Assembly (NCBI GenBank): GCA_947054455.1
Contig: CAMRWN010000003.1
Span: forward strand, 30,681-94,680
Source: an uncultured Alphaproteobacteria bacterium
Lineage (GTDB): Bacteria > Pseudomonadota > Alphaproteobacteria > Rs-D84
Direction: 5' to 3'
Length of the DNA stretch: 64,000 bases
Part shown: positions 8,034 to 16,898 of the stretch, one piece after another
Layout: every line of letters starts with the position of its first letter
How positions within the stretch are numbered: the stretch's first letter is position 1
Notes under the pieces: model-generated
The model's input: the letters and a program-made list of their open reading frames with translations, nothing else
Told to the model about the DNA's origin: nothing
Databases searched by the model: none
Position numbers and translations under genes: made by a program

Positions 8034-8136
8034 AAAAAAACCACCAAAAAGGTGGTCGGGAAGCTCGAAAAATCATAAATCTGAATGACCCCGCGGTCTT
8101 TGGACAAGCCTGTTGTATAACCGCGGCTTCCCGACC
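8034..8136 (-). promoter_or_regulatory. Structured RNA core plus overlapping intrinsic terminator (element A). Candidate cis-regulatory leader or 3' domain of an sRNA.
   Basis: In RNA sense: P1 GGUCGGGAAGC (8136-8126) pairs with GCUUCCCGACC (8064-8054). P2 is CCGCGGU..ACCGCGG and P3 is GUCAU..AUGAU. The terminator is ACCACC-UUUUU-GGUGGU-U7, and its 5' arm overlaps the 3' end of P1. The element is homologous to 16021-16128. Confidence 0.55.
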
Positions 8137-8274
8137 TGTGATGCGTCGGGATAAACACTACGTCGCGAGTAGGCGCGCCGTATGTTCACGTTTTACACCG
8201 GCATGCACCATGCATACCGCAGATTTATGGGATTTTCGAAGTCCCAAACCCAAATTCCCCTTGGATTTAATATA

Positions 8275-11971: not shown

Positions 11972-12134
11972 CAAAAAACCACCACAAATTTCAGGTGGTC
12001 AGGAGTTTTTTTCCGTCGCAATATCAAAAGCAGCACTAAATAGCGCATATTCAATTAAATTTCGACGCGTAGCGGAAGGGGCTTGAACACCACCGCGACA
12101 TGTCAATTATAGCATTGAGGTGTCCACTGTGCAA
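11972..12134 (-). promoter_or_regulatory. Promoter, ~125-nt RNA and terminator unit (element B) directly upstream of 11107-11961
   Basis: Minus strand reads TTGCAC (12134-12129), a 17-nt spacer, then TATAAT (12111-12106). The terminator GACCACC-loop-GGUGGU-U6 (12000-11972) ends about 12-27 nt before the start codon. Confidence 0.45.
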
Positions 12135-15559: not shown

Positions 15560-15770
15560 TTGATTTTGGAAATTTGATGATATATAATGATGGCGACGTC
15601 AATGATATTTGACGTTGGGGCGTAAGAACCTCTTAATTCAGAGCGTGCCTGAGCACGAAAAATCTCTAACTATTCTGGTTGGAGGGCGGCGATATATCTG
15701 AATAAGCCCGCTATTTCTCTGAATTATAGTTCTTAACCTCCAACCACCTTTGTTTGTGGTTGATTTTTTT
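15560..15770 (+). promoter_or_regulatory. Promoter, ~175-nt structured RNA and terminator unit (element C1). Candidate sRNA or attenuator.
   Basis: TTGATT (15560-15565), 17-nt spacer, TATAAT (15583-15588). A 17-bp interrupted helix joins 15623-15643 to 15717-15735. GGUUGGAGG (15677-85) can pair with CCUCCAACC (15737-45), which overlaps the terminator CAACCAC-loop-GUGGUUG-U7 (15741-15770). Confidence 0.5.
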
Positions 15771-16020
15771 GTCCCGGGTGGAATTTGGGTGTGTTTCCTC
15801 ATCTCCACACAACCACGAAATGCACTTGAATCTTTCAGCCGGGACACCTTGTTAATTTACTTGTTTTTATATTATTTTATGATATCATTTTTAACAGAAT
15901 CAGTAAGGGATTGCTGGTTCGGGGCTTCACTAGCCCGAATACACCGGAATAAGTCCACGTTGGCTGTTTGCCAAACGTTTCTATGGATTTATGTCGTTAA
16001 AAAATCCCCCGATTATAAAA

Positions 16021-16128
16021 GGTCGGGGAGCTGTTGGTTATATAACACGGGCAACCGAAAGGCCAATGGAGTCATTAGTGTATTTGATTAGTGAACTCCC
16101 CGACCGCCACTTGTTGAGCGGTCTTTTT
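16021..16128 (+). promoter_or_regulatory. Structured RNA core plus overlapping intrinsic terminator (element D), homologous to element A
   Basis: P1 is GGUCGGGGAG (16021-30) with CUCCCCGACC (16096-105). P2 is UUGG..CCAA and P3 is GUCA..UGAU. The terminator GACCGC-loop-GCGGUC-U5 (16102-16128) shares GACC with P1. It ends 27 nt before the ATG of 16155-16898. Confidence 0.55.
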
Positions 16129-16154
16129 ATTTCTGTAATAAAAGGAGTACACTC

Positions 16155-16898
16155 ATGAAAAAATTATTGTTAACATCAGTCATGGCTTTGTCGGTTGCAA
16201 GCGTCGCGCATGCGGACGGATTTTATATCAGCCCGCGCGTCGCATGGTCGCAAATGCGTGTGGACGAAGCGCGCATTGAAAAGAAGCCGATTGCCGGCGC
16301 GTGGTCTGAATTTGCCGGAAACAAACGCGAATCCTGGGGCGGGCGTGAAAGCAAACTGGCGCCAAAGTTTGCGGTCGGTTATGACCATGATGCTGAAGAA
16401 TACGGTATTTTGGGTCTGGAACTGGAATATGGTAAAACATCAAACCATTTTGATCCGACGCACAACGGCGTCGACTTTGACGGCGCATCACCCAATGACA
16501 GCGACAGCCGCGATTTTAAATACGGCGAATCCACATTGTCGTTGAACGCAAAATACGGATATGATTTGAAGTATGTAATTCCGTTTGTATCCGCTGGTAT
16601 CGGCTATACGACGATAGATTCAGAAAACAATTTCCGCAGTGGAACATATTGGTGGGAAACGCGCGATAGCGAACGCAACGTGTCTTGGAACATCGGGGCC
16701 GGTATAGAATTGCGTGCGACGGACCAAGTTTCATTCAGCTTGTCATATCGCTATACTGATTTGGGCAGTGTAAAATACACGAACCGGATGTACCATGAAA
16801 ACGCCAAGACAAACAGCAACGTGATTGAACGCAACTTTGATTCCGATGTTGACTTGCACAAACATGAAATTATCGGTGGTGTAAAATTCATGTTTTAA
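16155..16898 (+). CDS. Outer-membrane beta-barrel protein (Omp25/OMP_b-brl-like porin family)
   Basis: Signal peptide MKKLLLTSVMALSVASVAHA, SD aaggag, alternating beta-strand pattern, and C-terminal ...GGVKFMF. Confidence 0.8.
   Translation: MKKLLLTSVMALSVASVAHADGFYISPRVAWSQMRVDEARIEKKPIAGAWSEFAGNKRESWGGRESKLAPKFAVGYDHDAEEYGILGLELEYGKTSNHFDPTHNGVDFDGASPNDSDSRDFKYGESTLSLNAKYGYDLKYVIPFVSAGIGYTTIDSENNFRSGTYWWETRDSERNVSWNIGAGIELRATDQVSFSLSYRYTDLGSVKYTNRMYHENAKTNSNVIERNFDSDVDLHKHEIIGGVKFMF

Follow-up and report, generated by a model that had tools for sequence, protein, structure and literature searches.

Small structured RNAs that end directly before a gene may belong to that gene or merely adjoin it, and the question here is what such an element does in front of an outer-membrane protein (OMP) gene. 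The locus lies in a 64,000-nt stretch of DNA (hereafter the window) from an uncultured Alphaproteobacteria bacterium (Rs-D84; assembly GCA_947054455.1, contig CAMRWN010000003.1:30,681-94,680, forward strand). The genome carrying the window measures 728 kb (0.73 Mb). An initial annotation had read a three-helix RNA core followed by an intrinsic terminator at 16021-16128. It confined the feature to this core, which stands; the anti-P1 strand, the 5′ domain with its promoter-like site, two long-range helices (PK1 and PK2) and the kinship with sRNA-Xcc1 (Rfam RF02221) had been missed.

Materials and Methods

Copies of the element were collected with R1, our own covariance model built from 46 copies, which spans 20 nt 5′ of P1, the junction and the terminator. 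R1 was built because the first-pass filter of RF02221 misses other copies; the genome-wide RF02221 search returned copy A only. A strict scan of the genome required a perfect 8-bp P1, the core motif, an overlapping hairpin and a T run. Covariation was tested on an alignment of 82 copies. The structure of the 5′ domain was derived by RNAalifold from a plain MAFFT alignment of 7 orthologous OMP leaders. The curated gathering cut-off of RF02221 is 53 bits. Promoters, RNA ends and termination are predictions from sequence throughout.

Results

The core and the rival partners of P1

The features of the element before the OMP gene (copy B) and of two further copies, A and C, are collected in Table 1. 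The sequence, the R1 score and the covariation agree on the three-helix core at the letters and coordinates where it was first read. On the alignment of 82 copies fitted to the model, which favours the structure, P1, P2 and P3 together were paired in 95.5% of cells, with double changes at 26 of the 27 pairs. None of 500 shuffles equalled the junction pairing of the real alignment, and sliding the partner columns by 1-3 lowered it to 29-51%. When the core alignment was scanned for mutual information, no pairs beyond these emerged within the core. A lack of covariation in further copies had been named as a sign against the fold; the opposite was observed, with all three helices covarying. One detail was corrected: the apical hairpin of P2, read as CC-GAAA-GG, was in the wrong register, and covariation gives CGG-GCAA-CCG followed by an unpaired, conserved AAAG. 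The P2 internal loop is invariant in the family (UAUAYAAYA opposite AAAG).

The GACC that opens the terminator (16102-16105) is also the last four bases of P1. The earlier claim that the two helices contest these bases is borne out, both pairings being kept across the 82 copies. The terminator stem, its four P1-overlapping pairs counted in, was paired in 91.6% of cells, with double changes, and the anti-P1 helix was paired in 83.7% of cells, with double changes at 6 of 8 pairs; anti-P1 and the terminator flanks were unpaired in the model that produced this alignment, and these counts, like all others over copies, are inflated by kinship among the copies. Since the anti-P1 and terminator pairings are conserved, there are two rival partners for the P1 5′ strand and two for the P1 3′ strand.

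Anti-P1 (16007-16012) and the P1 3′ strand (16098-16105), CCCCGACC with GCCA after it, have exactly the sequence of the 3′ end (...GCCCCGACCA) of both tRNA-Pro(UGG/GGG), whose genes lie at G000:C2:13208-13284 and C2:65443-65519. A tRNA-sensing, T-box-like reading was rejected, as other P1 variants match no other tRNA ends and P1 relatives ending in GUC cannot pair with NCCA; the identity is probably coincidental. A helix followed by RCCA is also the type of end recognised by RNase P in the c4 and P4 CI precursors. Two further candidates were discarded. A possible internal promoter, TTGTTG-17-TGTAAT (16111-16139), was weak and not conserved among the other copies. A minus-strand terminator at the anti-P1 hairpin (R1 reverse match, 14.9 bits) was not accepted, as no minus-strand gene ends there.

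Table 1. Features of copy B, its downstream gene and copies A and C (window coordinates; paired strands are separated by a slash or by "with").
Feature	Position and sequence	Strand	Basis
Promoter-like site TTTACT-16-TATGAT, predicted start ~15890	15856..15883	+	Consensus scan
H1, 9 bp, loop AGGGAU (GNRA type)	15897..15920 (15897-15905 / 15912-15920)	+	RNAalifold, 7 leaders
H2, GGGC/GCCC stem; loop UUCACUA 15926-15932, 5′ strand of PK1	15921..15936	+	Complementarity, covariation
Linker AAUACAC, 5′ strand of PK2	15938..15944	+	P3-loop matching, RNAalifold
H3, ACGUUGGC / GCCAAACGU, then UUUCUAU; weak terminator-like hairpin within the leader	15957..15978	+	Terminator scan, folding
Anti-P1 strand CCCCGAUU, pairs with P1 5′ strand 16021-16028	16007..16014	+	Covariation, minimum-energy fold
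Xcc1-like core	16021..16105	+	RF02221 38.1 bits, R1 110 bits, covariation on 82 copies
P1	GGUCGGGGAG 16021-16030 with CUCCCCGACC 16096-16105	+	Sequence reading and covariation
P2a, 8 bp	16031-38 / 16062-69 (including UUGG 16034-37, CCAA 16063-66)	+	Family covariation
P2 conserved internal loop	UAUAUAACA 16039-47 opposite AAAG 16058-61	+	Family alignment
P2b, 3 bp, GCAA loop	CGG 16048-50 / CCG 16055-57	+	Family covariation
P3, loop 16075-84	GUCA 16071-74 / UGAU 16085-88	+	Sequence reading and covariation
J3/1 (UAGUGAA)	16089-95	+	Sequence
Intrinsic terminator, 10-nt loop, U5 16124-28	GACCGC 16102-07 / GCGGUC 16118-23	+	Reading, pair counts, folding
SD AAGGAG 16142-47 and gene of 247-aa OMP beta-barrel 16155-16898	16142..16898	+	ORF list, PF13505
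Copy A: anti-P1, core, terminator; leader to ~8303	8035..8157	-	RF02221 41.5 bits, R1 92.6 bits
Copy C, full "type-2" unit	15560..15769	+	R1, promoter and terminator scans, cognate long-range matches

A 5′ domain tied to the core by copy-specific contacts

Together with the predicted promoter, the unit of copy B would extend from ~15856 to 16128 and give a predicted leader RNA of ~240 nt. Orthologous leaders carry TTGACA-17-TAACAT or a similar site at an equal distance from the conserved GAAUCA leader start. This start, H1 with a GGGA-type loop and H2 are shared by 7 orthologous leaders, among which RNAalifold found double changes at 4 of the 9 pairs of H1. H3 was supported by a terminator-like scan match (15960-15974) and by the minimum-energy fold, and relatives carry a GC-rich hairpin with a U run at its position. 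Inspection by eye found no conserved leader ORF; B holds only a 5-codon ORF without SD, which is absent from the other copies.

Two contacts join this domain to the core. The H2 loop of B (15926-32) is the perfect complement of J3/1 (16089-95), giving PK1, and the linker (15938-44) pairs with GUGUAUU of the P3 loop (16078-84), giving PK2. The J3/1 of B is unusual, UAGUGAA against the common UUUUGAA, and the H2 loop matches it exactly. PK1 and PK2 were counted by best-match searches with controls and not on a fixed-register alignment. The best Watson-Crick match of J3/1 within 180 nt upstream was at least 7 nt long in 60 of 82 copies, compared with 8% of non-cognate pairs and 9% of shuffled upstream sequences, and the J3/1 matches nearly always sit in the loop of a GGG...CCC hairpin. 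The best match of the P3 loop, found independently, lay 0-12 nt 3′ of the H2-loop match in 62 of 82 copies, with a mean length of 7.7 nt for cognate and 5.2 nt for non-cognate matches. The sequences of both contacts are copy-specific in nearly all 82 copies. Moreover, both were recovered with double changes by RNAalifold on the 7 orthologous OMP leaders.

Further copies in the window, the genome and the class

Copy B had been described as the second of two copies. The window holds three clear copies, A, B and C, and at least 19 were found in the 0.73-Mb genome (9 by R1, 16 by the strict scan, 6 by both), with motif listings in the same genome showing copies beyond these 19. The R1 matches in the window scored 110 bits for B (E 3e-26), 92.6 bits for A and 31 bits for C (E 6e-6). 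Of 41 genomes sampled from the genus, which comprises gut bacteria with very small genomes, 40 gave R1 matches, the most being 52 copies in one genome (G019); among 150 other genera of the class that were sampled, 18 did so. Many of the 52 matches in G019 lie ~130-300 nt from contig ends, and this assembly appears to be broken at the leaders or at paralogous genes behind them.

A further correction concerns copy A, which lies on the minus strand, before the gene of a 138-aa Cys-rich exported protein (8006-7590, minus strand). Its long-range matches are UUCGAAAA:UUUUCGAG and CAUAAAUCUG:CAGAUUUAUG. Copy C (R1 match 15658-15768) lies 250 nt 5′ of copy B and comprises a promoter TTGATT-17-TATAAT (15560-88), an anti-P1 CUCUAAC, a P1 GGUUGGAGG / CCUCCAACC (15678-15746) and a terminator at 15741-69, with long-range pairing of its H2 loop (UAAGAAC:GUUCUUA) and its linker (UAAUUCAGAG:CUCUGAAUUA). 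No ORF was found behind copy C, and some units may act as free RNAs.

Copies C and B stand in tandem in a 630-nt gene-free interval, where read-through from C would enter the promoter and leader of B. A hairpin just 3′ of the C terminator (15771-15846) carries CUCAUCUCCACACAACCAC in its loop. The core of this loop, ATCTCCACA, occurs 6 times in the genome, 5 of the 6 directly behind type-2 terminators in a GC-rich hairpin; further instances lie in G000:C1 and C3. Apart from an insertion, the loop looks like the P1 3′ strand of type-2 units together with the terminator arm (CCUCCAACCACC), so that it could be a third rival partner, or else a non-coding product controlled by the units without ORF. 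A separate promoter-terminator unit was observed on the minus strand at 11972-12134 (TTGCAC-17-TATAAT ... CUCCUGACC-ACC..GGUGGU-U6), before the gene of a secreted protein. Its P1 3′ strand and terminator resemble those of the family; a P1 5′ strand was not found, and R1 gave only 11.9 bits. Judged from these parts, it may be a degenerate relative that always terminates.

Kinship with sRNA-Xcc1

An Rfam scan of the window at curated cut-offs returned three tRNAs and nothing else. Below the 53-bit cut-off, RF02221 matched copy B over its full length (38.1 bits, E 3.4e-5, model positions 1-87, 501-nt search) and copy A end to end (41.5 bits); copy C had no match at E<=1. RF02221 matches at E<=0.01 were found in 36 of 100 related genomes, two of them above the cut-off (57.8 bits in G029 and 55.5 bits in G060), which indicates that the local elements are diverged relatives of RF02221. 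sRNA-Xcc1 and copy B share the three-helix junction, a G-rich P1 of 9-10 bp, the P2 internal loop AUACAA-A opposite GAA with an apical hairpin, the P3 hairpin, a U-rich J3/1 and a 3′ tail that begins a hairpin. Unlike sRNA-Xcc1, the family of B is a chromosomal leader of surface-protein genes placed directly before the ORF, with an extra 5′ domain of ~130 nt, an anti-P1, a clear U-run terminator and up to 52 copies per genome.

Rfam types sRNA-Xcc1 as Gene; sRNA. Known since 2010, it has been recorded from plant pathogens, from Stx-type and APSE prophages, from islands of Xylella and from integron cassettes, where it stands upstream of symE. The portions of the literature available to us present it as a trans sRNA without known mechanism, or note it upstream of symE or of an ORF6N gene. 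None of them describes a cis-acting switch, and the anti-P1, the overlapping terminator, the 5′ domain, PK1 and PK2, the copy number and the link to exported proteins are not described there.

A genuine RF02221 member of E. coli O157:H7 EDL933 (L084, NZ_CP008957 1394619-1394707, minus strand) was located by searching the whole record, since the coordinate in PMC5331693 disagrees with RefSeq. An apparent promoter, TTGACA-17-CATACT, is seen ~150 nt 5′ of this member, the hairpin that overlaps its P1 lacks a good U run, and a prophage antirepressor (Ant) gene begins 40 nt downstream. A hairpin upstream of the member displays in its loop ACUGAACAAAUAAG, the antisense of the P3 loop and 3′ strand (CUUAUUUGGCUCAGU), indicating that the long-range contact is not peculiar to these gut bacteria.

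Linkage of the element to the gene behind it

The product of the gene behind copy B matches PF13505 (OMP_b-brl, E 3.6e-16), and the earlier label "Omp25-like porin" is fair for an outer-membrane beta-barrel. The U run of B ends 26 nt before the ATG at 16155, and not 27 nt as first counted; the spacing is 27 nt in copy A, so that the likeness of the two copies stands as near-equality. Among the 82 copies, an SD and an ORF follow 69, the start typically lying 20-30 nt past the end of the model. A gap of this size, which in B holds just the SD, leaves no room for a separate promoter, and the OMP gene must therefore be transcribed through the element.

This bears on the current annotation of sRNA-Xcc1, under which copy B would be a stand-alone gene of a trans-acting sRNA that merely adjoins the porin gene. 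The promoter-like site and terminator of its own, the Rfam type and the orphan copy C fit such a gene, but the gap of ~26 nt holding just the SD recurs family-wide, the element always faces the gene and is linked to the orthologous gene in 9 of 9 genomes, and a conserved anti-P1 and terminator overlap would have no role. We therefore regard a stand-alone sRNA gene as very unlikely.

The initial annotation had also noted that both copies known to it precede exported envelope proteins, and this holds for A and B as well as for much of the family. Of 62 downstream ORFs with 60 aa or more, 49 were scored by a crude heuristic, and on copies that are not independent, as having a signal-peptide-like N-terminus; the background rate among ORFs of the genome that follow an SD is 29%. 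The downstream products are mixed and include three PF13505 barrels, a YadA-type anchor, Cys-rich secreted proteins, XRE-type regulators, a GT2 glycosyltransferase and an EcoRI-type methylase.

OMP orthologues with 53-72% identity were recovered from nine further genomes. All nine genes have an R1 match ending ~25-30 nt before the start, and the nine leaders fall in different sequence subtypes. Loss of the element upstream of orthologous OMP genes, with presence at unrelated loci, had been named as the sign of a mobile repeat; the synteny comparison found the element kept before all nine orthologues, which argues against such a repeat. The leader nearest to B, L069 (G003:C2:55348-55476, compared with window 16001-16215), has identical flanks (AAAAUCCCCCGAUUAUA), and the gene behind it encodes a YadA-anchor protein that is not an orthologue of the OMP; the two signal peptides are almost the same (MKKIILTSAMAMSV vs MKKLLLTSVMALSV). 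This likeness before a different protein suggests that surface-protein genes may swap promoter, leader and signal peptide as one unit.

A mobile or recombining repeat, either MITE-like or a promoter-leader-signal-peptide cassette, could have been duplicated without any switching function. The L069 case, the high copy number (at least 19 in 0.73 Mb, up to 52 per genome) and the position of many G019 copies near contig ends are consistent with it. On the other hand, no terminal repeats or target duplications were seen, the element keeps a constant orientation and spacing from the start codon, seven helices carry compensatory changes that show selection on the RNA fold, and synteny with the OMP orthologues is kept at 53-72% protein identity. 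A repeat of this kind is highly improbable as an explanation of the element.

Energy balance and the proposed switch

The two folds of copy B were compared in energy. From anti-P1 to the terminator, the minimum contained the anti-P1 hairpin and the terminator (-44.0 kcal/mol), compared with -40.5 kcal/mol when P1 was forced; without the anti-P1 strand, the P1 fold became the minimum. For the full leader, the stop fold was the minimum at -89.3 kcal/mol, compared with -82.6 kcal/mol with P1 forced. In this minimum, the pairing of PK1 continues through the 5′ half of H2 into the P1 3′ strand. When the H2 and P3 hairpins were kept, the values were -78.8 kcal/mol (stop) and -76.8 kcal/mol (P1), and PK1 and PK2 could contribute ~-6 and ~-5 kcal/mol to either state. 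Across the 82 copies the difference between the folds had a median of -0.35 kcal/mol and was within 5 kcal/mol in 53.

These rival pairings suggest the following mechanism. In the read-through fold, P1 would close the junction and hold GACC, and formation of the terminator stem would be blocked. In the stop fold, anti-P1 would capture the P1 5′ strand, the freed P1 3′ strand would complete the terminator (16102-23), and RNA polymerase would halt at the U run, 26 nt 5′ of the ATG. The 5′ domain, tied to the core by the H2 loop:J3/1 and linker:P3 loop contacts, could either stack on P1 and lock it, or extend into the P1 3′ strand and help to open it. Because the folds are near-equal in energy, a modest input could tip the balance. 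Such an input might come from a small molecule, an ion, a protein bound at the junction or at the invariant P2 internal loop, or from the speed and conditions of folding.

Copy B is thus probably the core of a leader that acts in cis as a terminator/antiterminator switch for the OMP gene. It is the best-supported reading, given the near-equal energies, the conservation of the rival pairings and a constant place ahead of the SD. Sequence, covariation and energy establish the helices and their mutual exclusion, and the gene linkage and the want of space for another promoter are likewise shown; from these we infer actual termination and read-through, the fold favoured in vivo and a trigger. Against the switch speak the unusual conservation of the P1 sequence for a mere switching helix, the terminator of B with its long 10-nt loop and five U only, the lack of an ORF behind copy C, and the downstream genes, which are functionally mixed, unlike those of a classical metabolite riboswitch. 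The suggestion that the copies share a regulatory role rather than coincide finds support in the covariation, the energy balance, the export bias and the synteny at all nine orthologues, the function being deduced from these.

Possible action of the RNA in trans

Leader-derived RNAs are known from phage immunity systems, namely c4 of P1/P7, CI RNA of P4 and CA of N15. IsrK of Gifsy-1 is a leader-derived RNA that acts both in cis and in trans (PMC4825925). Copy B resembles c4, P4 CI and IsrK in being a small structured RNA from the leader of the operon that would be controlled, ending at a terminator before the gene, with loops complementary to sites in the same transcript and short variable sequences that set specificity; the EDL933 relative, like c4 and IsrK, precedes an antirepressor gene. 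Unlike c4 and isrK, the partners of its variable loops lie upstream, away from the RBS, copy B has no phage context, and it resembles neither their sequences nor their models. In a scan of 15800-16300 with Rfam at E<=10, sRNA-Xcc1, Yfr10 and Trp_leader were the only matches, with neither C4 (RF01695) nor isrK (RF01394).

The variable loops were also compared with the region around the downstream RBS. The best matches averaged 6.35 nt for cognate and 5.74 nt for non-cognate pairs, and matches of at least 8 nt were weakly enriched (15 of 81 cognate vs 62 of 802 non-cognate). With this weak family-wide excess only, a c4-like downstream target was not accepted as a general feature. In B itself, the P3 loop AGUGUAUU (16077-84) pairs either with the PK2 linker or with AGUACACU in the SD-AUG spacer (16146-53; 8 bp, one G-U), the RBS spacer being a near-duplicate of the PK2 5′ strand.

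A dual role of the c4, P4 CI or IsrK type would have most transcripts terminate or be processed to a core RNA of ~90 nt, and the short RNA would act in trans on read-through transcripts of the same locus, addressed by the copy-specific P3-loop and J3/1 sequences. IsrK works exactly so (PMC4825925), and sRNA-Xcc1 accumulates as an 88-nt RNA in Xanthomonas campestris (PMC2996969) and is abundant in EHEC (PMC5331693). The position of the EDL933 member, 40 nt before the antirepressor gene, is that of c4 and IsrK; the P3-loop and J3/1 sequence is unique to almost every copy, the P3 loop of B can pair with its RBS spacer, and copy C lacks an ORF. Against this stand the small family-wide excess of complementarity to the downstream RBS region, the upstream position of the variable-loop partners in the same RNA, the scan at E<=10 without C4 or isrK, and the failure to find Hfq or ProQ. 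Searches of 61 genomes from the genus, 45 being of high quality, returned neither Hfq nor ProQ/FinO; Hfq, ProQ and CsrA were not found in the genome carrying the window, where a CsrA match of 18 bits inside a 619-aa ORF was spurious. With no Hfq or ProQ found, a chaperone-dependent trans sRNA is unlikely and a self-contained RNA is favoured. We consider the dual role rather unlikely, and the leader of the OMP gene is discussed below as a cis switch.

Discussion

Large multi-helix leaders that work as terminator/antiterminator platforms include the T-box, M-box and cobalamin leaders. The leader of copy B is like these riboswitches and attenuators in several respects. It has a large conserved fold with long-range loop contacts, it sits between promoter and SD, and it occurs in several copies per genome. 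The 3′ strand of its closing helix is common to an intrinsic terminator, P1 and terminator being mutually exclusive at 16102-16105, and a strand of the anti-antiterminator type precedes the core. It differs from them in its mixed regulated genes, its sequence-conserved P1 and its copy-specific "address" helices. No riboswitch, T-box or leader model of Rfam gave a convincing match at copy B, the best others having E ~2.5-3.9.

A wider reading, which we put forward as a possibility and hold less firmly than the switch itself, is that the ~240-nt leader represents a new class of large cis riboregulator, in which a conserved core would sense one signal and address helices would prevent mis-pairing, forming an RNA regulon for surface proteins. 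The sensor core would consist of the P2 internal loop and the junction, and the address helices would be the H2 loop:J3/1 and linker:P3 loop contacts. These contacts would stop paralogous leaders, as many as 52 in one genome, from pairing wrongly with one another, in hosts that have lost most protein regulators. Under such a reading, the sRNA-Xcc1 of phages, integrons and plant pathogens would be the core of a cis switch and not a trans sRNA.

The copy-specific long-range helices are natural orthogonal RNA folding "codes", of interest for folding studies and RNA design. If the switch is real, sRNA-Xcc1 would gain a testable mechanism. For the bacteria themselves, it would mean that one RNA device governs a large part of the exported and surface proteins in genomes of 0.7-1 Mb that have few regulators, with porins, adhesin anchors and Cys-rich secreted proteins among the targets of an unusually large RNA regulon.
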